Shown one piece after another: positions 1,247-64,000 of a stretch of 64,000 bases of DNA. The position numbers and the translations under genes are program-made. This stretch comes from a virus (taxonomy: Duplodnaviria > Heunggongvirae > Uroviricota > Caudoviricetes). The notes beneath the pieces were generated by a model. That model was not told the DNA's origin and ran no database searches. It worked only from the letters and a program-made list of their open reading frames with translations. Each line of letters opens with the position of its first letter. The stretch's first letter is position 1. Location: the IMG/VR virus record IMGVR_UViG_642973540_000001; one strand, written 5' to 3'.

Positions 1247-1319
1247 GCGGGTGTGGTGTAAACGGGGAACATACATGGTTTTGCCCATGTGGATGAGGGT
1301 TCGAGTCCCTTCACCTGCT
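1247..1319 (+). tRNA. tRNA-like gene with non-canonical anticodon arm (6-bp stem ACATGG/CCATGT, 6-nt loop TTTTGC; TTG triplet)
   Basis: acceptor GCGGGTG/CACCTGC, T-arm GAGGG-TTCGAGT-CCCTT, CCA encoded; anticodon loop not 7 nt. Confidence 0.5.
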
Positions 1320-1408
1320 GCTCTGAAGGTAGCCTGATGAAAATCAGGAGCAAATAACACGAGGCGACAGAACGCGCCTACTCTCAGAAAAATAAGTTGA
1401 AAAACTTG

Positions 1409-1437
1409 TTGACAGATAGAAAGAAGCGAGTTATGAT
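1409..1437 (+). promoter_or_regulatory. sigma70-like promoter TTGACA-N17-TATGAT
   Basis: consensus hexamers. Confidence 0.5.
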
Positions 1438-1460
1438 AGCTTCATAGTTTTAGAAAACAT

Positions 1461-1535
1461 CTCCGTTTAGCTCAGTATGGATAGAGTAGGCCGTTTGGGG
1501 CGGTCGGGTCGAAGGTTCGAATCCTTCAACGGAGA
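1461..1535 (+). tRNA. tRNA-Pro (TGG)
   Basis: acceptor CTCCGTT/AACGGAG, anticodon loop TTTGGGG, T-loop TTCGAAT, CCA encoded. Confidence 0.8.
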
Positions 1536-1545
1536 CCAAATTTAT

Positions 1546-1617
1546 GTCGTAGAAGGCAAATGGTTAGCCACCTGACCTTCAATCAGTTGCTCGCGGGTTC
1601 GAATCCCGTCTACGACT
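1546..1617 (+). tRNA. tRNA-Glu (TTC) probable; C at position 33
   Basis: acceptor GTCGTAG/CTACGAC, loop CCTTCAA, T-arm GCGGG-TTCGAAT-CCCGT, CCA encoded. Confidence 0.6.
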
Positions 1618-1629
1618 CCAAAATAAAGT

Positions 1630-1658
1630 TTGACAGGTACTTTGAATTCTGTCAGTAT
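1630..1658 (+). promoter_or_regulatory. sigma70-like promoter TTGACAGG-N17-CAGTAT
   Basis: -35 consensus, weaker -10. Confidence 0.4.
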
Positions 1659-1732
1659 GGGTCAGTAGCTTAATTGGGAAAGCATCTCACTTGCAATGAG
1701 AAGGATGAGGGTTCAAGTCCCTCCTGTATCCA
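1659..1732 (+). tRNA. tRNA-Ala (TGC) with imperfect acceptor/T-arm junction
   Basis: anticodon arm TCTCA-CTTGCAA-TGAGA, D-stem GCTT/AAGC, T-arm GAGGG-TTCAAGT-CCCTC, G3-U70 possible, ACCA 3' end; two acceptor mismatches. Confidence 0.55.
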
Positions 1733-1913
1733 CCAAAACTTTAATGGTCTGGTCAAATTCTCCCTTAGAATCTTGACTGATAAACTCTCTGTAAGGATTC
1801 GCGGTTGCTTGCAGAGCTTTGGGATAGCATCTTCTAAGTCACGTGCTGAAGAATGCGAAATTGGAATGACCTTGCCGAAACGGTTAGTTTGTCCAGAGCC
1901 ATTAAAGTTTTAT

Positions 1914-1985
1914 AGCGGGATGGAGCAGTGGTAGCTTGCCAGTTTCATTATCTGGAGGTCGTAGGTTCGAATCCTACTCCCGCTT
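1914..1985 (+). tRNA. tRNA with CAT anticodon (Met or Ile-lysidine)
   Basis: acceptor AGCGGGA/TCCCGCT, loop TTCATTA, T-T at 31-39, T-arm GTAGG-TTCGAAT-CCTAC. Confidence 0.7.
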
Positions 1986-1996
1986 CCAAATTTAAA

Positions 1997-2069
1997 GGGT
2001 TTGAAGCACATATGGATGTGCGGCTGGCTGTTAACCAGATGGTAGTGGGTTCGAGTCCCACCTTTCCCG
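1997..2069 (+). tRNA. tRNA-Asn (GTT) with three T-T mismatches in acceptor stem
   Basis: acceptor GGGTTTG/CTTTCCC, D-stem GCAC/GTGC, loop CTGTTAA, T-arm GTGGG-TTCGAGT-CCCAC, CCA encoded. Confidence 0.6.
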
Positions 2070-2078
2070 CCAATTTAT

Positions 2079-2158
2079 GCGTCTATGGCAGAGATGGTCA
2101 ATGCAGCGGTCTGTAAAACCGCCCCGAAAGGTTACTGGTTCGAGTCCAGTTAGGCGCA
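2079..2158 (+). tRNA. tRNA-Tyr (GTA), type II
   Basis: acceptor GCGTCTA/TAGGCGC, anticodon arm GCGGT-CTGTAAA-ACCGC, long variable arm, CCA encoded. Confidence 0.85.
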
Positions 2159-2167
2159 CCAAACAAT

Positions 2168-2238
2168 TGCGAAGTAGTGAAATGGCATCATACTGGTTTC
2201 ATTATCCGGTGTAGGTAGTTCGAATCTACCCTTCGCAT
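2168..2238 (+). tRNA. tRNA with CAT anticodon (Met or Ile-lysidine)
   Basis: perfect acceptor TGCGAAG/CTTCGCA, loop TTCATTA, T-arm GGTAG-TTCGAAT-CTACC. Confidence 0.75.
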
Positions 2239-2320
2239 CCAAATTACTCAGTTTGGGTTGTTCTGAGTGACGTGTAGGGTATTACCCTTTAGAGCGTCGA
2301 ATCAAAGACTCCTTAAAGTT

Positions 2321-2394
2321 GGGGATGTGGCAGACTTGGTAATTGTACCGCACTGTCTATGCGGAATATGAGGGTTCAAATCCCTTCATCCTCG
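2321..2394 (+). tRNA. tRNA-Asp (GTC)
   Basis: acceptor GGGGATG/CATCCTC, anticodon arm CCGCA-CTGTCTA-TGCGG, T-loop TTCAAAT. Confidence 0.75.
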
Positions 2395-2624
2395 CCAATT
2401 TCACCGGAAAGACTTAAAGTCCAACTGGTAACTGCCGTCTGGTATATGCGGTGATTCTACTTTGTAGCGTTCCTCTTATGAGGTGAATGGATGTCTCCTT
2501 TCCAAAGCACATTTAGATGAAATATACAGGTCTACAGCTTTTACTTAAACGTTTCACCTCCTTGCGTTTAAGGTTTGGGCTACATAACTGAGTAGTCTCG
2601 CTCAGGGCGACAGAGAGACAAAAT

Positions 2625-2712
2625 GGAAGGGCAAATCGACTGGCGACGAAAACGGTCTTGAAAACCGCCGAGCGTTAATAGCGCCTTGAGGGTTCGACTC
2701 CCTCTCCTTCCG
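2625..2712 (+). tRNA. tRNA-Ser (TGA), type II
   Basis: acceptor GGAAGGG/TCCTTCC, loop CTTGAAA, long variable arm, T-arm GAGGG-TTCGACT-CCCTC, GCCA end. Confidence 0.75.
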
Positions 2713-2716
2713 CCAC

Positions 2717-2788
2717 GGTCTAATTAGCTTATATGGTAAAGCAACGGTCTGAAAAGCCGTGGAACAGGGTTCGAATCCCGATAGACCG
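2717..2788 (+). tRNA. tRNA-Phe (GAA)
   Basis: anticodon arm ACGGT-CTGAAAA-GCCGT, acceptor GGTCTAA/ATAGACC, CCA encoded. Confidence 0.75.
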
Positions 2789-2798
2789 CCAAATTCAA

Positions 2799-2871
2799 CG
2801 GTGTGTAACTCAATTGGCAGAGTGGGTGGCTTTTAACCACAGGGTTGCAGGTTCGATGCCTGTCACACCGA
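2799..2871 (+). tRNA. tRNA-Lys (TTT)
   Basis: acceptor CGGTGTG/CACACCG, D-stem ACTC/GAGT, loop CTTTTAA, T-arm GCAGG-TTCGATG-CCTGT. Confidence 0.8.
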
Positions 2872-2881
2872 CCAAACAAAT

Positions 2882-2955
2882 GGACTATTAACTCAACTGG
2901 TCAGAGTACCCGACTCTTAATCGGGAGGTTCAGGGTTCGACTCCCTGATAGTCTA
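2882..2955 (+). tRNA. tRNA-Lys (CTT)
   Basis: acceptor GGACTAT/ATAGTCT, anticodon arm CCCGA-CTCTTAA-TCGGG, T-arm CAGGG-TTCGACT-CCCTG. Confidence 0.75.
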
Positions 2956-2969
2956 CCAAATTTCTTAGT

Positions 2970-3042
2970 AGTGGTATGGCAGAGATGGTCATGCACTTCC
3001 TTCATACGGAAGATTACATCGGTTCAAGTCCGATTACCACTT
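2970..3042 (+). tRNA. tRNA with CAT anticodon (Met or Ile-lysidine); CCA not encoded
   Basis: perfect acceptor AGTGGTA/TACCACT, arm CTTCC-TTCATAC-GGAAG, T-arm ATCGG-TTCAAGT-CCGAT, 3' end followed by TCTA. Confidence 0.75.
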
Positions 3043-3056
3043 CTAAGAGATTTAAT

Positions 3057-3128
3057 TGTGGGTTAGCATAAATGGTAATGCAGACGGCTGATAACCGTCA
3101 GAAGAGGGTTCGATACCCTCACCTACGA
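3057..3128 (+). tRNA. tRNA-Ile (GAT)
   Basis: anticodon arm GACGG-CTGATAA-CCGTC, T-arm GAGGG-TTCGATA-CCCTC, CCA encoded. Confidence 0.8.
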
Positions 3129-3138
3129 CCAAACAATC

Positions 3139-3210
3139 GGGGTATGGAGTAATTGGCAACTCTACGGTTTTTGAGGCCGTCAGTTTTCGGTTCGAATCCG
3201 AATGCCCCCG
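3139..3210 (+). tRNA. tRNA-Gln (TTG)
   Basis: acceptor GGGGTAT vs ATGCCCC(C), loop TTTTGAG, T-loop TTCGAAT; one-nt irregularity at 3' acceptor. Confidence 0.7.
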
Positions 3211-3219
3211 CCAAAAAAT

Positions 3220-3293
3220 GCACCCTTAGAACAACTGGACAGTTCCGCTGTCTTCTAAACAGCTAGTTACAGGTTCGAGTCCTGTAGGGTGTG
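3220..3293 (+). tRNA. tRNA-Arg (TCT)
   Basis: acceptor GCACCCT/AGGGTGT, arm GCTGT-CTTCTAA-ACAGC, T-arm ACAGG-TTCGAGT-CCTGT. Confidence 0.8.
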
Positions 3294-3380
3294 CCAAAAA
3301 TGGGTGATTCTGCAACGGTGGAGCTAGGCCAGCTTTGAAGCCGTAAAATGGGAATGTGGTATCGACTTACGATAGTTGTT

Positions 3381-3465
3381 GAAAGTGATTTGTGAAGCCG
3401 GACTAACAGATTATGAGTAAATGGCGACAATACGTTGTAGAGAGGTTCGAATCCTTAATCACTCG
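3381..3465 (+). tRNA. tRNA-like element: canonical T-arm + acceptor 3' strand + CCA, but no recognisable anticodon arm; matching 5' acceptor strand GGGTGAT lies about 160 nt upstream (3302)
   Basis: AGAGG-TTCGAAT-CCTTA-ATCACTC-G-CCA at 3441-3468; 5' partner GGGTGAT at 3302-3308. Confidence 0.35.
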
Positions 3466-3476
3466 CCAAATTTAGG

Positions 3477-3505
3477 TTGACAGGTGAAACAAACTCCTGT
3501 AATCT
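3477..3505 (+). promoter_or_regulatory. sigma70-like promoter TTGACAGG-N17-TAATCT
   Basis: consensus hexamers. Confidence 0.5.
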
Positions 3506-3713
3506 TTACCGTAGTTTTCGTTGAGTATGCTTCTATTTTTATCATTTAAAATAAATGCAAATGATGCTCAATTTCTGGCAGTGGCGTAATAGCTAAACAC
3601 CAGTAGGGTCTTCCGACTCCCTATCACCGAATTCGGCGTAGAGTTGTCCCGTCTATGATTGCCAAACGGGGCTTCAACCTAAAAGGTTCTTACGAGAGTC
3701 TTTCAGATTGAAT

Positions 3714-3787
3714 GGCGTAATATCCCAATTGGCAGAGGAAGCAGGTTCAAACCCTGTTCAGTGTGGGTTCGACTCCCACTTACGCTA
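3714..3787 (+). tRNA. tRNA with CAA (Leu) anticodon but type-I (short variable loop) architecture
   Basis: acceptor GGCGTAA/TTACGCT, arm GCAGG-TTCAAAC-CCTGT, 5-nt variable loop, T-arm GTGGG-TTCGACT-CCCAC. Confidence 0.6.
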
Positions 3788-3919
3788 CCAGATTCAGATG
3801 TCTTTGTAATCGTCCCTGAAATGACGGGGCAATTAAGGAGGTGGTCTGTATCTCCTGACTGTCAGGATAACCAGTAGAGCGTTAACAACACTGAGAAGTG
3901 TGGTAACTCGCTTGATAAT

Positions 3920-3992
3920 GCAAGTATGATGTCAACTGGTAACATGGCGTCCTTCCAAGTCGCTCTTACGGGTTCGAATCCCGTTACTTGCT
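3920..3992 (+). tRNA. tRNA-Gly (TCC)
   Basis: perfect acceptor GCAAGTA/TACTTGC, D-stem ATGT/ACAT, loop CTTCCAA, T-arm ACGGG-TTCGAAT-CCCGT. Confidence 0.8.
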
Positions 3993-4001
3993 CCAAACAA
4001 T

Positions 4002-4074
4002 AGGGGATTAGTTTAACTGGCAAAATGTCGGCCTCCAAAACCGCACGTTGAGGGTTCGAATCCCTCATCCCCTG
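4002..4074 (+). tRNA. tRNA-Trp (CCA); weak anticodon stem; CCA not encoded
   Basis: perfect acceptor AGGGGAT/ATCCCCT, loop CTCCAAA as in E. coli tRNA-Trp, T-arm GAGGG-TTCGAAT-CCCTC. Confidence 0.7.
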
Positions 4075-4086
4075 TCAATTCAGAAT

Positions 4087-4158
4087 GCCTCCATCATATA
4101 AGGGCTATTATGCCTGTTTTGTAATCAGGTCATCGCGGTTCGAATCCGTGTGGGGGCA
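4087..4158 (+). tRNA. tRNA-Thr (TGT)
   Basis: acceptor GCCTCCA/TGGGGGC, loop TTTGTAA with T-T at 31-39, T-arm CGCGG-TTCGAAT-CCGTG. Confidence 0.75.
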
Positions 4159-4168
4159 CCAAAACTAT

Positions 4169-4241
4169 ACTCGTATAGCTCAGATGGTAGAGCGGCATCT
4201 TTACACGTTGCTGGTCAGGCGTTCGAGTCGCCTTGCGAGTA
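4169..4241 (+). tRNA. tRNA-Val (TAC)
   Basis: acceptor ACTCGTA/TGCGAGT, D-arm GCTC-AGATGGTAGA-GCGG, loop TTTACAC, T-arm AGGCG-TTCGAGT-CGCCT. Confidence 0.8.
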
Positions 4242-4250
4242 CCAAACAAT

Positions 4251-4325
4251 GGCTGTGTAGCCCAACTTGGCAGAGGCACTACGCTAAGAACGTATACAGT
4301 GAGAGTTCGAATCTCTCCACAGCTA
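4251..4325 (+). tRNA. tRNA, anticodon ambiguous (loop CTAAGAA reads AAG; Leu-like, type-I)
   Basis: acceptor GGCTGTG/CACAGCT, T-arm GAGAG-TTCGAAT-CTCTC, CCA encoded. Confidence 0.55.
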
Positions 4326-4334
4326 CCAAACAAT

Positions 4335-4408
4335 AGCCCTTTATCTTAAATGGATAGAGACTCAAGCTACGAACTTGAGAGGTTTGGGTTCGAATCCCAA
4401 AAGGGCTT
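4335..4408 (+). tRNA. tRNA-Arg (ACG)
   Basis: perfect acceptor AGCCCTT/AAGGGCT, arm TCAAG-CTACGAA-CTTGA, T-arm TTGGG-TTCGAAT-CCCAA. Confidence 0.85.
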
Positions 4409-4413
4409 CCAAT

Positions 4414-4487
4414 AGGATGTTCGTATAGTTGGCCTATTACACCGGACTCTGAATCCGGTTACGATGGTTCGAATCCATCACGTCCTG
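4414..4487 (+). tRNA. tRNA-Gln (CTG)
   Basis: acceptor AGGATGT/ACGTCCT, arm CCGGA-CTCTGAA-TCCGG, T-arm GATGG-TTCGAAT-CCATC. Confidence 0.8.
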
Positions 4488-4496
4488 CCAAACAAT

Positions 4497-4570
4497 AGGT
4501 GATTACCCCAATTGGCAGAGGGTAGGAGCTTAAACCTCCGATGTTGAGAGTTCGAATCTCTCATCACCTA
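4497..4570 (+). tRNA. tRNA with TAA (Leu) anticodon but type-I architecture
   Basis: perfect acceptor AGGTGAT/ATCACCT, arm AGGAG-CTTAAAC-CTCCG, 5-nt variable loop, T-arm GAGAG-TTCGAAT-CTCTC. Confidence 0.65.
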
Positions 4571-4575
4571 CCAAT

Positions 4576-4650
4576 GGAGTTGGTATCATAAATGGATAAT
4601 GACCCTGACTGTGAATCAGGTCTATGCGGGTTCGAATCCCGTCCTTCTCC
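4576..4650 (+). tRNA. tRNA-His (GTG) with G-1 and two T-T mismatches in acceptor stem
   Basis: G-1 + GAGTTGG/CCTTCTC + C73, D-stem TCAT/ATGA, arm CCTGA-CTGTGAA-TCAGG, T-arm GCGGG-TTCGAAT-CCCGT. Confidence 0.8.
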
Positions 4651-59888: not shown

Positions 59889-60168
59889 CTTTGTCTGTAA
59901 AGTCAATCCGTGGTGGTTCTTCAACAAAGAAGACCTGTCACCGAAACGCTGTCCAGATTGTCTGTCCAAAAGTTTTTACAGTGTTGCAAAAGACGTGTCA
60001 GATTATCTTCTTTTAGAAGCAGAATACCGTTGCAACTGTTGTGATAGTGTCGTACAGTATTGGTCATACGGGAACTTTGACCCCGCTTACCTTCCTCCGA
60101 AAGGACGTGAAGAACATCGTCAAAGACAAAATGAAATGATAACATTTGGAGAAGTCCCACATGATTAG
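59872..60168 (+). CDS. zinc-ribbon protein (CPDC...CNCC)
   Basis: two Cys pairs. Confidence 0.5.
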   Translation: MKAVYNFVCKVNPWWFFNKEDLSPKRCPDCLSKSFYSVAKDVSDYLLLEAEYRCNCCDSVVQYWSYGNFDPAYLPPKGREEHRQRQNEMITFGEVPHD

Positions 60169-61006
60169 TTTAGCTGTGAACCATCAGAACGTAGCTGTAT
60201 CACGAACCGTCTTCCCTGCTGGAGAGGTTGGAGTCAGCCTTGATGTTATGGGTCTGAAGAAAGCCTTGAACGGTAGCAATACGATTGAGGTTGCAATCCA
60301 CACTCAGGGTTATGAGCCGAACATGCTTATCACCATCATGCAGATTAAAGAGGCACTGAATCAGTTCTTCTTACCTTACATGGTGAAGCCTCGTTACATC
60401 CTCATGCTGGCCTACATGCCGTTCTCTCGCTATGACCGTCACATGTATCGCGGTGATGCTTTCGGTCTGAAGGTCTTTGCTCAGGTTATCAACAGCATGA
60501 ACTTTGACATGGTTGTTACTCTGGATGCACACAGTGACGTGACAGCCGCTGTAATCAACAACCTGTACAACATCCCTCAAGTGGATGCACTGATGACTCA
60601 CCGTTTCTTACGCGACTATGATGTAGTTGTCGCACCAGATGCAGGTGCAGAGAAGAAAGCAACCGCTGCTGCAAAAGCTATGCAGTGTGAGTTAGCGACT
60701 CTGGTCAAACATCGTAACGTGATGACTGGCGAAATCACTGGTATGGGTCTGTCAACTGGTATTGTCAAGAATCAGAATTGCCTGATTGTAGATGATTTGT
60801 GTGATGGTGGTGCTACGTTTGTACACGCTGCTGCAAAACTTTTCACTCTCGGTGCAAAATCTGTTGACTTGTATGTGACTCACGGAGTATTCTCTAAGGG
60901 TACTGAAGTTCTGCGAAATGCAGGGATTGAGAACATTTACACCACGAACTCCTTCGAACAGGAAGGTAACGGTGTCAACTTTGTCGGCTACGGCTCACTT
61001 ATTTAA
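60161..61006 (+). CDS. prs: ribose-phosphate pyrophosphokinase-like enzyme (Prs/ADPR-PP synthetase family)
   Basis: DAHSD and PRPP-binding LIVDDLCDGGATF motifs; ATG 60161 with GGAGAAG SD. Confidence 0.85.
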   Translation: MISLAVNHQNVAVSRTVFPAGEVGVSLDVMGLKKALNGSNTIEVAIHTQGYEPNMLITIMQIKEALNQFFLPYMVKPRYILMLAYMPFSRYDRHMYRGDAFGLKVFAQVINSMNFDMVVTLDAHSDVTAAVINNLYNIPQVDALMTHRFLRDYDVVVAPDAGAEKKATAAAKAMQCELATLVKHRNVMTGEITGMGLSTGIVKNQNCLIVDDLCDGGATFVHAAAKLFTLGAKSVDLYVTHGVFSKGTEVLRNAGIENIYTTNSFEQEGNGVNFVGYGSLI

Positions 61007-61019
61007 TAGGAAACTGAAC

Positions 61020-62849
61020 ATGAACAATACACTGATTGCCACCCTGATTTGCGATGCGTACAAGTCCGGTCATAAATTCCAATACCCTGCGGGGCTGGAT
61101 TCACTGTTCCTGAACATTACTCCACGTAATGCTAAGTATTTCCCAGGCGGCACAGACGTTGTTGCGAACTTCGGTTCAACTGCTTTCCGTGACACTTGGC
61201 TGGTCAAGTTCTGGAACGAGCATTTCTTTGACCTTCCAAAAGATGTTGTCATGGAAATTCATGAGATGTACATGGACGGTGTACTTGGTAAAGGTACTCT
61301 GACACATGACCACATCGCAGCACTGCATGACTTAGGCTACCTGCCAATCATTGTTCGTGCTTTACCGGAAGGGACTGTATCACCTGTCAAGGTTCCTGTG
61401 ATGACCATTGAAACGACTCACAAAGACTTTGCATGGGTTGGTGGTTACCTTGAAGACCTGTTCAGTTCTAACCTGTGGAAGGTTATGACCATTGCAACCA
61501 TCGCAATGAAGTATCGTGTTCTTCTGGAGCGTTTCGCTGAAGAAACTGGTGTTGATAAAGGCTTCGTTGATTATCAGGCTCATGACTTTGCCCTTCGTGG
61601 TATGTCAGGTGTTCATGATGACATTCAGCACAACATCGGTCATCTGGCATTCTTCAAAGGGACTGACTCATTCCCTGCGACTTGGGCTATCAAGCAGTTT
61701 TATGGTGATGTCAAGGTTAGTGACATTGCAGGTTCTGTTCCAGCAACTGAACACAGCGTTACCTGTGCAAACATTGCTGTTGAAGCAAGTCAAATGGTTC
61801 TGGCATCTGGTGAGTTAGGTGATGGTAATCCACAGTCGAAAGCAGCACTGCTGGCTAAAGCGGAACAGAATTTCTTCCACCGTCTGCTGACTGAGGTCTA
61901 TCCAACTGGTATTCTGTCAGTAGTTGGTGACACTAACAACTGGTATGATACAGTGACTACCAAAGTACGTGAATTGAAAGATGTCATCATGAAGCGTGAA
62001 GGTAAACTGGTTCTCCGTCCTGACTCTGGTATTCCAGAGCATATCGTGGCAGGTTACCGCTGCATCGAGATTGAGAACGCTAAGGCTGTCATTGCTGAAG
62101 AGTACAAGTCAGGCCGTCTTGGTTGGGCTTCAGTTCTGGAAAGCAACCTTGCTGACATCAAAGAGTTGACCATTGATAAGTTGACTGCAAATGATTGTCA
62201 GATTATCAAAAACGCTGGCTTTGAAGTGGTGGTCGATGCTGAAGACTTTGACGGTGCATACTGTGTCTTCCTTGATGAGAAGATTGCAAAACCATCTGTC
62301 AAGGTTGGTCGCTACGTTCAGATTGAGGTTCTGGAAGGTGCTGTAGAATCTCTGTGGAAAATCTTTGGTGGTGATGTCACAACTAAAGGCTACAAGGTTC
62401 TGGATGAGCATATCGGCCTGATTTACGGTGACTCAATCACTCTGGAACGTGCAGGGAACATCTTGCAACGACTGAAAGAGCGTGGATTCGCAAGCTGTAA
62501 CGTTGTGTTCGGTGTAGGTTCATTCACTTACCAGATGATTACACGTGACTCTCTCAGCTTTGCTATCAAGGCGACTGTGGCGACTGTGGACGGTATCAAC
62601 TACCCACTGTCAAAAGACCCAATCACCGATGACGGCACTAAGAAGTCTGCAACTGGTTACATCATCGTTCGTGATACCGGAACAGGTGAACCGCTGCACA
62701 TGGTTGATGGTCTGAGTCGTCAAGCATACGACAACCTGAACCAGCAAGGTTTGAATGAACTCCGTGTGATTTTTGCAGACGGTGAGTCAATCAACTACGA
62801 TGAGAACATTCTCACAATCCGTGACAAGTTCTTGAAAAACATGAAGTAA
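61020..62849 (+). CDS. nadV: nicotinamide phosphoribosyltransferase-like enzyme (NAMPT/NadV family)
   Basis: 609 aa, NAMPT-family sequence from MNNTLIATLICDAYKSGH; 14 nt after prs-like stop. Confidence 0.85.
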   Translation: MNNTLIATLICDAYKSGHKFQYPAGLDSLFLNITPRNAKYFPGGTDVVANFGSTAFRDTWLVKFWNEHFFDLPKDVVMEIHEMYMDGVLGKGTLTHDHIAALHDLGYLPIIVRALPEGTVSPVKVPVMTIETTHKDFAWVGGYLEDLFSSNLWKVMTIATIAMKYRVLLERFAEETGVDKGFVDYQAHDFALRGMSGVHDDIQHNIGHLAFFKGTDSFPATWAIKQFYGDVKVSDIAGSVPATEHSVTCANIAVEASQMVLASGELGDGNPQSKAALLAKAEQNFFHRLLTEVYPTGILSVVGDTNNWYDTVTTKVRELKDVIMKREGKLVLRPDSGIPEHIVAGYRCIEIENAKAVIAEEYKSGRLGWASVLESNLADIKELTIDKLTANDCQIIKNAGFEVVVDAEDFDGAYCVFLDEKIAKPSVKVGRYVQIEVLEGAVESLWKIFGGDVTTKGYKVLDEHIGLIYGDSITLERAGNILQRLKERGFASCNVVFGVGSFTYQMITRDSLSFAIKATVATVDGINYPLSKDPITDDGTKKSATGYIIVRDTGTGEPLHMVDGLSRQAYDNLNQQGLNELRVIFADGESINYDENILTIRDKFLKNMK

Positions 62850-62857
62850 TTTACAAA

Positions 62858-62880
62858 GGGACTCTTCGGAGTCCTTTTTT
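62858..62880 (+). terminator. terminator GGGACTC-TTCG-GAGTCC-TTTTTT (family copy 7)
   Basis: exact repeat. Confidence 0.8.
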
Positions 62881-62890
62881 ATTTTATGTG

Positions 62891-62920
62891 TTGACAACGC
62901 TATACCGAATCGCTTAAAGT
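62891..62920 (+). promoter_or_regulatory. promoter-like TTGACA-N17/18-TTAAAGT
   Basis: perfect -35, weak -10. Confidence 0.35.
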
Positions 62921-62960
62921 AATCACATCGAAACGAAACAACAACCACTGAGGAAATATC

Positions 62961-63422
62961 ATGAATCGTCGTATCACTGCTGTATCGAAAGACTTCTACA
63001 ATCGTCGTATGGGTGAACTGGTAAAGCAATTCCCTAACGTGTTCAACAAGTCTCTCCCTATGCCGCTGGCGATTGGTGTTCACAAAGTTCTTGCAGAGCA
63101 GACTGACTTCACTCGTAAAGAAATCAATGCGCTGCTTTCAGTATGGACTCGTCGTCATGAGTATGTCTGTGCAGCCGTCACTCACGGTTTCCGTGTAGAC
63201 CTTAACGGTGAGTTCGTTGAAGAAATCTCAGAAGAGCATCTGTATGGCTTCAGCCGTGCGTTTGACAATCTGACCAAAAAGCAGAAAGCTGGATTCACTC
63301 GTCGCTGGAACCGTGCTGATACCACTGACCAGTTTGTCTGTGAACCGTTTGAATGCTACGTTGAAGCAAAGGTTGAAGAGCCTGTGCAAACCGAAGAGGT
63401 ATGTCAAGAATGCCTGATTTAA
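62961..63422 (+). CDS. ProQ/FinO-domain RNA-binding protein homologue (153 aa) with C-terminal Cys-rich tail
   Basis: aligns with E. coli ProQ N-terminal domain: FPNVF..PLAIGV..L..W..YV..GFRVDLNGE; GAGGAAA SD. Confidence 0.75.
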   Translation: MNRRITAVSKDFYNRRMGELVKQFPNVFNKSLPMPLAIGVHKVLAEQTDFTRKEINALLSVWTRRHEYVCAAVTHGFRVDLNGEFVEEISEEHLYGFSRAFDNLTKKQKAGFTRRWNRADTTDQFVCEPFECYVEAKVEEPVQTEEVCQECLI

Positions 63423-63751
63423 AGATGCAGTCGTTCAATATCAATGCTCACTTCGTGATTGAAGAAGCGGAGATTGATAAGGCTATCGAAGCACTGGAAT
63501 TACTTGCAGAGCATCATAGCAACCGTTCAAGTTGGGAACCTTTATCTGAAGAATCAACGGTGACAATTGTCATCACGGTTAAGGGTTGTGAAGATACAAT
63601 GGCTTGGTCTCAGAAGCTGCAAAAGCAGTCAAGAGGAACCTTGAAAGCGTATCTGAAAGATGCCCGACAAAGAGATGGTATCAAGTTCGCAAGCACTTCA
63701 CGAATCCGTGGTCAGGTTGTGTTTGAACCATCAATAATTTTCTACTCATAA
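63401..63751 (+). CDS. hypothetical protein (start ambiguous: 63401/63410/63425)
   Basis: ORF track; overlaps ProQ-like stop. Confidence 0.4.
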   Translation: MSRMPDLKMQSFNINAHFVIEEAEIDKAIEALELLAEHHSNRSSWEPLSEESTVTIVITVKGCEDTMAWSQKLQKQSRGTLKAYLKDARQRDGIKFASTSRIRGQVVFEPSIIFYS

Positions 63752-63761
63752 GGTAAGGCGA

Positions 63762-63926
63762 ATGGACGTTCACACTGGTCTTAACATCTTACTGGTTCTG
63801 GTTATTGTGGGCGGTCTATTAGCTGCCAAGTACCGTGTAGACTCATGCTGTAAGCATTGTGATGGTACAGGCGTTAAAGATGGTTGTGTATGTCCATTCT
63901 GTCAAGGAACCGGAGAAGATGATTGA
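63762..63926 (+). CDS. 54-aa membrane-anchored DnaJ-type zinc-finger mini-protein (CxxCxGxG x2)
   Basis: AAGG SD; TM helix then CKHCDGTG...CPFCQGTG. Confidence 0.4.
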   Translation: MDVHTGLNILLVLVIVGGLLAAKYRVDSCCKHCDGTGVKDGCVCPFCQGTGEDD

Positions 63927-63959
63927 CAGTTAGCTGTCAACTATTTTAGAATACGTTTC

Positions 63960-63978
63960 GGGGAGGGCTTCTCCCCTT
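63960..63978 (+). terminator. hairpin GGGGAG-ggctt-CTCCCC (weak terminator, short T tail)
   Basis: GC stem, only TT after. Confidence 0.3.
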
Positions 63979-64000
63979 AACCTTAAAGGATAAATCCGAC

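Follow-up and report, generated by a model that had tools for sequence, protein, structure and literature searches.

Does a virulent phage encode a FinO-domain RNA-binding protein of its own, and which RNAs might such a protein serve? The question is raised by an open reading frame (ORF), gene 115, near the end of a 64,000-nucleotide stretch of a Caudoviricetes genome (IMG/VR record IMGVR_UViG_642973540_000001; hereafter the window). Among the bacterial RNA-binding proteins associated with small RNAs (sRNAs), the FinO/ProQ family ranks as the third major class; to our knowledge, work on it has been limited to members encoded by chromosomes and plasmids. Virulent phages are known to interfere with the decay of host RNA, and recent work shows them using RNA-binding proteins against RNA-based immunity. 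Positions 62400-64000 of the window match, with 100% identity, the final 1601 bases of Erwinia phage phiEa21-4 (EU710883 / NC_011811; 84,576 bp; Ounavirinae, Kolesnikvirus), and the window corresponds to positions 20577-84576 of that record, in which the gene 115 product (gp115) is labelled 'hypothetical phage protein'. Kolesnikvirus is a genus of lytic phages used for fire-blight biocontrol. Here, sequence profiles and a predicted structure place gp115 in the FinO/ProQ family, with the fold of that family. The gene and its parts are as follows.

62961..63422, + strand: coding sequence of gene 115, ATG start, 153 amino acids (aa), a stand-alone FinO-domain protein
62950-62954, + strand: Shine-Dalgarno sequence GAGGA, read from the sequence, 6 nt before the gene 115 ATG
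62979..63326, + strand: FinO-domain core with flanking helices, aa 7-122, isoelectric point (pI) 9.8, containing DFYxRR (aa 11-16), the N-cap T51, the G39/T63/Y68/R78 pocket and N56
63327..63419, + strand: acidic C-terminal tail, aa 123-153, with 9 acidic residues, 1 basic residue and 4 Cys, pI 4.05, predicted disordered, lineage-specific

gp115 is a minimal FinO-type protein

gp115 matched the Pfam ProQ/FinO profile PF04352 with an E-value of 3.3e-18 and 66.1 bits against a gathering cutoff of 27, and aa 17-109 aligned to positions 8-104 of the 109 in the profile. This was the sole Pfam-A match at E <= 1, and PF04352 is also the Pfam label precomputed for the gp115 cluster; the PHROGs group of gp115, phrog_18901, is annotated 'unknown function'. 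Searching PDB sequences with phmmer returned RocC (2e-5), FinO (1e-4), Lpp1663 and E. coli ProQ (7e-3), and NMB1681 (0.08). BLASTP against the N-terminal domain of E. coli ProQ, with a domain sequence identical to PDB 5NB9, gave 26% identity over aa 20-94.

The predicted structure led to the same family. A family alignment of 47 sequences, obtained by profile search of a 5.8-billion-protein collection, formed the basis of the AlphaFold2 model (in a word-index search, gp115 alone retrieved 2 clusters and an alignment of phage homologues used as the query retrieved 49). The mean predicted local distance difference test (pLDDT) score of the model was 81, rising to approximately 95 over aa 11-110 and falling below 50 over aa 123-153. 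When the model was compared with the PDB by Foldseek, ranks 1 to 26 were all FinO-domain structures (RocC, NMB1681, Lpp1663 and FinO; E 4e-5 to 2e-3), and the next match had an E-value of 0.34; by its predicted structure, gp115 therefore has the three-dimensional fold of a FinO domain. Because the PF04352 score is far over the cutoff and the structure matches FinO domains only, we regard the family homology as real.

Within the family, gp115 is distinct from the named subfamilies. It scored 31.3 bits against the NCBIfam FinO model (NF010317 subfamily; cutoff 136), covering only profile positions 80-175, and 20.7 bits against the ProQ equivalog (NF003434; cutoff 127). A Pfam scan and disorder prediction found neither a ProQ-type basic linker nor a Tudor-like C-terminal domain (Pfam ProQ_C) in gp115. 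A long N-terminal helix of the FinO type was not found either, as 6 residues precede helix 1 in the model. Thus, gp115 is a minimal FinO-type protein and is neither ProQ proper nor a ProQ orthologue. Judged by sequence and modelled structure, it falls in the RocC/NMB1681/FinO branch of the family, the 'eclectic' or specialist branch described in PMC9977716, and not in the ProQ clade.

A preliminary description of this locus, made from the letters alone, had already given the ORF and its length exactly, and the conserved blocks it quoted are all present (F24-P25..F28, P35-L-A-I-G39, L59..W62 and Y68-VCAAVTHGF-R78-VDLNGE). The ProQ/FinO homologue that it proposed was borne out by the profile search and structure prediction it had suggested as checks, and the Tyr/Arg pocket of the family is present. 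Its alignment to ProQ along the whole length holds for the first ~110-120 residues and not for aa 123-153, which lack a ProQ counterpart and are predicted to be disordered. Similarly, the name ProQ is apt as far as the FinO/ProQ family goes and is too specific for a protein that scores so far below the ProQ cutoff and has neither linker nor Tudor-like domain.

The 3'-nucleotide pocket is retained and the helix arginine is lost

In the structure of RocC with the RocR terminator, the 3'-terminal nucleotide is held by a universally conserved Tyr/Arg pair (RocC Y87/R97) and a Gly turn, G52 (PMC9674577). The ProQ counterparts are Y70/R80 and the Gly turn G37, and Y70 and R80 are essential for RNA binding (PMC10168233, PMC9674577). 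The hairpin base is read by an N-capped helix, through S70, K71, K73 and R75 in RocC and K54, R58 and R62 in ProQ (PMC9674577, PMC10168233). The helix Arg shared by the two (RocC R75, ProQ R58) is Arg in approximately 80% of the family (PMC9674577); its substitution abolishes binding in ProQ (R58A; PMC10168233) and costs more than 100-fold in affinity in RocC (R75D; PMC9674577). Residue equivalences for gp115 were taken from alignments to ProQ and RocC, and residue roles from the same two studies (PMC9674577, PMC10168233).

gp115 G39: Gly turn, ProQ G37 and RocC G52; kept, present in 175/191 relatives
gp115 T51: N-cap Ser, RocC S70; kept as Thr, with Ser/Thr in 137/191 relatives
gp115 R52: ProQ K54 and RocC K71; kept as a basic residue
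gp115 N56: ProQ R58 and RocC R75; lost
gp115 S60: ProQ R62; lost
gp115 T63: ProQ T65 and RocC T82; kept
gp115 R64 and R65: RocC R83 and R84; kept
gp115 Y68: ProQ Y70 and RocC Y87; kept, invariant in the 47-sequence alignment and present in 186/191 relatives
gp115 R78: ProQ R80 and RocC R97; kept, invariant in the 47-sequence alignment and present in 185/191 relatives

These alignments show that the predicted 3'-nucleotide pocket (G39, T63, Y68 and R78) and the N-cap T51 are intact. Position 56, on the other hand, is R/K in 89/191 relatives of gp115 and another residue (S, G, N and others) in 100, and by this comparison the loss of the helix Arg is a subfamily trait and not a defect specific to gp115. 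The subfamily also has a conserved N-terminal motif, DFYxRR. Two basic residues at positions 15/16 were found in 28 relatives, which form one clade and are all without R/K at 56, and the RR pair was found in 0/89 of the relatives with R/K at 56. It is possible that the backbone contact has been relocated to R15/R16 of the N-terminal helix.

By analogy with the RocC-RocR structure and with ProQ mutagenesis, an RNA that ends in a hairpin and a short U-tail would dock its 3'-terminal nucleotide in the Y68/R78 pocket, and the N-capped helix would read the backbone phosphates of the hairpin base. With N56 in the helix, the backbone contact would probably come from R52/K53, R64/R65 and the subfamily-specific R15/R16. 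An RNA bound in this way would have its 3' end protected against 3'-to-5' exonucleases and polyadenylation, or would be kept available for base-pairing; how readily gp115 binds or lets go may be modulated by its acidic, disordered tail.

The tail itself differs sharply in charge from residues 1-122, which are basic (pI 9.8, vs 4.05 for the tail). An acidic tail as a family-wide feature was rejected, since the net charges of the relatives' tails range from -5 to +6 and that of gp115, -8, is the extreme. A four-Cys zinc site (C127, C132, C147 and C150) was also considered and was not supported: C127 is Arg in phage Prophecy, and the pLDDT of the tail is below 50. Such a site is therefore unlikely as a requirement. 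Only the terminal CxEC is conserved, being retained in Prophecy as well, and a three-residue indel is tolerated. We also observed that a metagenomic relative, P0009 (158 aa, approximately 37% identity), has a Cys-rich C-terminal tail, EECSGACTECENCGGAGI, resembling the CxEC terminus of gp115 and hinting, at the level of sequence, that a C-terminal Cys motif recurs in the subfamily.

Gene 115 is a selected gene with a predicted host-type promoter

Orthologues of gene 115 with 95-100% protein identity were present in 36/36 database phages containing the region, under Erwinia, Salmonella, Hafnia and Enterobacter/Cronobacter labels. Comparison of phiEa21-4 with the M7-type species (Nei-Gojobori) gave a ratio of nonsynonymous to synonymous substitution rates (dN/dS) of 0.044-0.067 at dS 0.34-0.45, and gene 115 is under strong purifying selection. 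The Shine-Dalgarno sequence GAGGA is kept in 5/6 aligned Kolesnikvirus genomes, with AAGGA in Prophecy. Two signals precede the gene.

62855..62884, + strand: intrinsic terminator closing the prs-nadV operon, a AAAGGGACUC-UUCG-GAGUCCUUU stem-loop followed by a U-run
62891..62920, + strand: sigma70-type promoter of gene 115, TTGACA, 18-nt spacer and TAAAGT, matching 10/12 consensus positions, 13 bases past the terminator

Both promoter hexamers are invariant in the six Kolesnikvirus genomes, and 8/18 spacer positions differ between the two species, as one would expect if the sigma70-type promoter is functional. In the window, TTGACA-N16-19-TANNNT was matched 24 times against 4.5 expected. Given the low dN/dS, the presence in 36/36 related genomes and the invariant promoter hexamers, we consider gene 115 to be a real, selected gene. 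The host-type promoter suggests that it is expressed early by the host RNA polymerase; no transcriptome of phiEa21-4 was found in the literature.

The terminator hairpin (62855-62878) has a 10-bp stem, a UUCG loop and a U6 run (-13.3 kcal/mol, z -4.1), is invariant in the six Kolesnikvirus genomes and is annotated 'terminator' in EU710883. Furthermore, it belongs to a set. The window has 7 copies of a 17-nt terminator core, GGGACTCTTCGGAGTCC (6 exact and 1 with one mismatch), each followed by T4-T6, against a chance expectation of 0.01.

26625, 53342, 57630, 58913 and 62858, + strand: copies of the terminator core
36290 and 38222, - strand: copies of the terminator core

Most copies have an A-rich 5' flank that extends the stem, and the terminator reads as RNA AAAGGGACUCUUCGGAGUCC. 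A genome seldom repeats one hairpin letter for letter, which points to copying or to strong selection for that precise sequence. These 7 near-identical UUCG-loop terminators in 64 kb, with their U4-6 tails, are candidate ligands of gp115.

The preliminary description had placed gene 115 in a short unit of its own, behind a terminator and a promoter-like element at 62891. Both elements were confirmed, and so were the two tiny proteins it saw downstream, one with a hydrophobic N-terminus and two CxxCxGxG motifs (genes 116 and 117, below). The unit is thus delimited upstream by its own promoter and a terminator; at its other end no terminator was found between gene 117 and the rIIA promoter, which is the next element, so that transcripts from the gene 115 promoter probably read into rIIA-rIIB. 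The family of identical UUCG terminators reported there was recovered in seven copies, of which one has a mismatch. As for the structured non-coding RNAs (ncRNAs) that it placed in the tRNA region, 26 tRNA genes were found at window positions 1247-4650 at the Rfam gathering threshold; the others match no Rfam family, and no Rfam family besides tRNA was found in the 64-kb window.

By analogy with the characterised FinO-domain proteins, we think it somewhat better than an even bet that gp115 is an RNA-binding protein of the minimal, stand-alone FinO type, made from its own host-sigma70-type promoter, and that it would bind and protect RNA 3' ends. Among its possible targets, the phage's own transcripts, with their stereotyped strong terminators, come to mind first, with a chance a little short of even; host ProQ-class sRNAs and 3' untranslated regions (3'UTRs) are a doubtful guess, some other target a slightly more doubtful one, and a counter-defence RNA would be an unlikely one.

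Several points weigh against the favoured reading. N56 stands in place of the near-universal helix Arg (ProQ R58, RocC R75), and the affinity and specificity of gp115 could therefore differ strongly from those of the models. The compensation by R15/R16 rests on clade-level co-occurrence (28/28 vs 0/89), in which the 28 sequences are not phylogenetically independent. Intrinsic terminators occur in every genome, and the UUCG family therefore does not single out phage RNAs. Split or truncated copies of gene 115 occur in two records, SeKF_13 and phiEa116, which may mean that the gene is dispensable or that the records contain sequencing errors. Finally, literature searches found no experiment, RNA-binding data included, on any FinO protein encoded by a phage, in agreement with the earlier statement that no phage ProQ has been characterised.

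A different possibility is that gp115 is a dedicated matchmaker in the style of FinO/FinP. Like FinO, FopA and RocC, which serve one or two RNAs each, it would then serve a single phage pair of antisense RNA and mRNA by which gene expression is timed. The grouping of gp115 with the specialist or 'eclectic' branch (RocC, FinO and NMB1681) and not with the ProQ clade would fit this (PMC9977716). Nevertheless, no antisense promoter-terminator unit stands out near gene 115 in a consensus scan (no genome-wide antisense search was made), the window offers no Rfam family except the 26 tRNAs, and no FinP-like partner turned up in the KASIA genome either, according to its authors (PMC8541194). We regard such a role as very improbable.

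FinO-domain proteins recur in large phages

By tblastn, gp115 had homologues in 75/50,697 phage records at E <= 1e-5, comprising 36 Kolesnikvirus-like and 39 other records. The latter were Salmonella phages 7-11/SE131 and PKM (Grimontviridae), Aeromonas Lahexavirus, the E. coli Kuravirus/Suseptimavirus podophages and Shewanella phage KASIA. No other Ounavirinae record had a homologue at this threshold, and gene 115 is therefore a genus-specific accessory gene. Using E. coli ProQ as the query added Sodalis phage phiSG1, and a structure search of BFVD added Cronobacter GAP52, Sinorhizobium phiM9, Rhizobium RHph_N34 and a second FinO-fold protein in phage 7-11. Phage 7-11 thus apparently has two FinO-fold proteins (G0X555 and G0X575), of which G0X575 has 125 aa and 13% identity to gp115 and is detectable by structure only. 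In the 64-kb window itself, the gene 115 product is the only one, as no second FinO-like ORF was found.

An exhaustive phmmer search of 1.84 billion cluster representatives yielded 283 matches at E <= 1e-3, of which 26 were at E <= 1e-10 and at least two of the weaker ones are repeat-protein artefacts. Two giant proteins with '7 stretches' (P0028 and P0107) were among these matches and were rejected as false positives and not multi-FinO proteins, because their Pfam matches are Ig-like Big_13 and YDG repeats. The closest plasmid relatives are approximately 30-35% identical to gp115.

The family assignment is already public. Gene 115 is annotated 'proQ: RNA chaperone' in Pistou, Panisse, Tian and Rouille, 'ProQ/FINO family protein' in SPARTY and 'sRNA-binding protein' in Omen, Harbringer and Fifi106, and the homologue in 7-11 bears the UniProt name 'ProQ/FinO domain-containing protein'. 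A 2023 review of FinO/ProQ evolution states that homologues occur on bacteriophages (PMC9977716), and the KASIA genome paper describes FinO-like proteins as found 'rarely in phage genomes' and reports no FinP-like partner (PMC8541194). With phage FinO/ProQ proteins noted in sister-phage records, UniProt and these two papers, the novelty claimed in the preliminary description was overestimated. gp115 is an uncharacterised member, possibly of a distinct subfamily, of a known family. It is no new kind of molecule, and its value lies in the biology of FinO-domain proteins in lytic phages. Large phages of at least six further groups also carry such proteins, and gp115 would offer a tractable entry to the roles of 3'-end-binding chaperones in lytic infection.

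In another reading gp115 would be directed at the host. It would compete with or replace host ProQ, sequester or stabilise ProQ-class sRNAs, 3'UTRs and antitoxin RNAs of type I systems, and thereby rewire post-transcriptional control as the phage takes over the cell. The 3'-end pocket is the same as in the global binders ProQ and NMB1681, and minimal FinO domains can be global binders (PMC7272453). The host-type promoter is consistent with early expression, and the near-identical phages on Erwinia, Salmonella, Hafnia and Cronobacter would fit a structure-based, host-independent RNA target. On the other side, the gene was not captured from a host proQ, as identity to E. coli ProQ is 26% and the best relatives are all from phages or metagenomes, and gp115 is without the duplex-contact residues R58 and R62, which E. 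coli ProQ needs for all seven ligands tested (PMC10168233). We consider this reading unlikely, although worth keeping in view.

On the host labels, we observed that phages labelled Salmonella, Hafnia and Enterobacter/Cronobacter are 98-99% identical to phiEa21-4 across the gene 115 region. Either these phages have a very broad host range, or their names reflect the isolation host alone.

Neighbouring genes and the prs-nadV linkage

In circularly permuted records, gene 115 is flanked by prs-nadV upstream and by rIIA/rIIB downstream, with two small genes following it.

60161-61006, upstream of gene 115: prs, annotated as phosphoribosyl pyrophosphate (PRPP) synthetase
~60972-62849, upstream of gene 115: nadV, annotated as nicotinamide phosphoribosyltransferase
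63410..63751, + strand: gene 116, 113 aa, its start overlapping the end of gene 115 by 13 nt (ATGCCTGATTTAA)
63762..63926, + strand: gene 117, 54 aa, 10 nt past gene 116, with a hydrophobic N-terminal segment and two CxxCxGxG motifs (DnaJ-type zinc-finger signature)
63923..63952, + strand: rIIA promoter, TTGACA-18-TAGAAT, matching 11/12 consensus positions, overlapping the gene 117 stop and forming the downstream edge of the 115-117 block

By their Pfam signature (PF14572; PF18127/PF04095), prs and nadV correspond to the NARP1 operon, which consists of two genes (Adps and Namat). The nadV product has approximately 610-643 aa against a 500-position PHROG profile, with Pfam NAPRTase matched in two stretches. 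NARP1 rebuilds NAD+ from ADP-ribose (ADPR) and nicotinamide, defeating NAD+-depleting defence, and was first shown in the BASEL coliphage Bas63 (bioRxiv 10.1101/2024.02.11.579819). In Salmonella phage 7-11 the FinO gene lies one gene upstream of prs-nadV (L001 2998-6333), and in its metagenomic relatives it abuts prs or is 1-3 small genes apart (L016 6001-9176; L017 6001-9463; L022 10001-14176). These metagenomic contigs are syntenic with 7-11 and share 50-57% protein identity with it in the ATPase, prs and nadV; genes for TerB, TerC and TerD were also observed near FinO/prs-nadV in them. The linkage is thus seen in two independent lineages, Kolesnikvirus and 7-11, with opposite gene order, and is absent from four others (the PKM-like, KASIA-like, ECBP2-like and Aeromonas phage loci). 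A pattern scan of IMG/VR for the FinO-NARP1 linkage with a narrow alignment returned only the three known genomes, and six contig look-ups were added. We treat the linkage as a lead and not as a result.

This neighbourhood raises the possibility of a counter-defence role, in which gp115 would bind an immune-system RNA (a type I/III antitoxin RNA, or a retron or other defence ncRNA) and prevent activation. Gene 115 directly follows the prs-nadV pair with its NARP1 signature and precedes rIIA/rIIB, the arrangement of FinO with prs-nadV recurs in 7-11 and its metagenomic relatives, and the gene is accessory, having no homologue in the other Ounavirinae records. A precedent is TifA of T4, a phage RNA-binding protein that neutralises ToxIN, in a paper that mentions neither FinO nor ProQ (PMC10853763). 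Yet an argument from gene neighbourhood carries little weight where the region is simply the early and accessory part of the genome, the linkage is confined to 2 of the lineages compared, a PADLOC scan of gp115-117 gave no matches, and no anti-defence family was matched. A counter-defence role of this kind is, in our estimate, decidedly unlikely.

A variant of these ideas takes the subfamily traits as its starting point. Having lost the helix Arg and gained DFYxRR, and with an acidic tail in this lineage, gp115 could represent a phage-specific FinO subfamily that acts as a counter-defence or RNA-stabilising factor and is linked to NARP1 in two unrelated virulent lineages. It might cap phage terminator 3' ends, so that phage mRNAs resist host exonucleases and polyadenylation, or it might hold an RNA of a host defence system or an antitoxin RNA in place, thereby keeping abortive infection from being set off. 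This combination is also unlikely in our view, and the more general reading of gp115 as a stand-alone protein that binds and protects RNA 3' ends is the one we retain.

Of the two small genes, gene 116 encodes an ORFan that is found in Kolesnikvirus only: a search of 5.8 billion proteins retrieved 2 clusters, and no family was matched; its model, built from 3 near-identical sequences, is a low-confidence alpha/beta fold (pLDDT 55.8). The 13-nt overlap suggests that gp116 is translationally coupled to gp115. gp117 belongs to phrog_3931, and its record notes similarity to RB49p046 of the T4-like phage RB49; it matches the DnaJ zinc-finger region below threshold (E 3.8e-5), and it resembles a membrane-anchored mini DnaJ-type zinc finger. 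At the downstream edge of the block, the -35 hexamer of the rIIA promoter lies in a perfect 7-bp palindrome, TTGACAG-TTAG-CTGTCAA (63923-63940), which also holds the gene 117 stop, and the rIIA transcript is predicted to carry a GGGGAG/CTCCCC hairpin (63960-63976) at its 5' end. The palindrome may be an operator and the hairpin a 5' stabiliser.

Comparison with known systems

With ProQ of E. coli, Salmonella and Erwinia, gp115 shares PF04352, the FP..F and PL.IG blocks, the pocket pair (Y70/R80, equivalent to Y68/R78), T65 (T63) and K54 (R52). FinO of F-like plasmids and FopA of pCol1B9 are more distant in build and setting: gp115 lies far under the FinO cutoff of 136 bits and is without the long N-terminal helix, its carrier is a virulent phage where theirs are conjugative plasmids, and their antisense partner has no known gp115 counterpart. 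The minimal FinO proteins NMB1681 (the ProQ of Neisseria meningitidis) and Legionella Lpp1663 are approximately 21-25% identical to gp115, which differs from them in being phage-encoded, in having Asn at the helix-Arg site, in the N-terminal DFYxRR and in a 31-residue acidic, Cys-containing tail.

The other phage FinO-domain proteins (7-11, Aeromonas LAh_6/8/9, Kuravirus/Suseptimavirus, KASIA p031, phiM9 and phiSG1) are 31-44% identical to gp115. Like gp115, they are found among the small early or accessory genes of large virulent phages, and all are uncharacterised. Their C-terminal parts differ, being absent in LAh, a domain of approximately 110 aa in 7-11 and PKM, and acidic in gp115. The helix Arg is kept in only some of them (LAh and KASIA), and gp115, with its pocket intact and the helix Arg missing, is a natural variant for dissecting RNA recognition by FinO domains.

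The best match to gp115 is RocC of Legionella pneumophila (RocR-bound, PDB 7RGU; phmmer E 2e-5, Foldseek E 4e-5). RocC represses competence, is encoded on the chromosome and acts with one main sRNA; it has R75 where gp115 has N56, and its long C-terminal region is needed for function, whereas gp115 ends in a short acidic tail. The two have in common the N-cap Ser/Thr and the pocket Tyr/Arg, and T63-R64-R65 of gp115 corresponds to T82-R83-R84 of RocC before the pocket Tyr. RocC serves as the structural model for recognition of a hairpin plus 3' tail.

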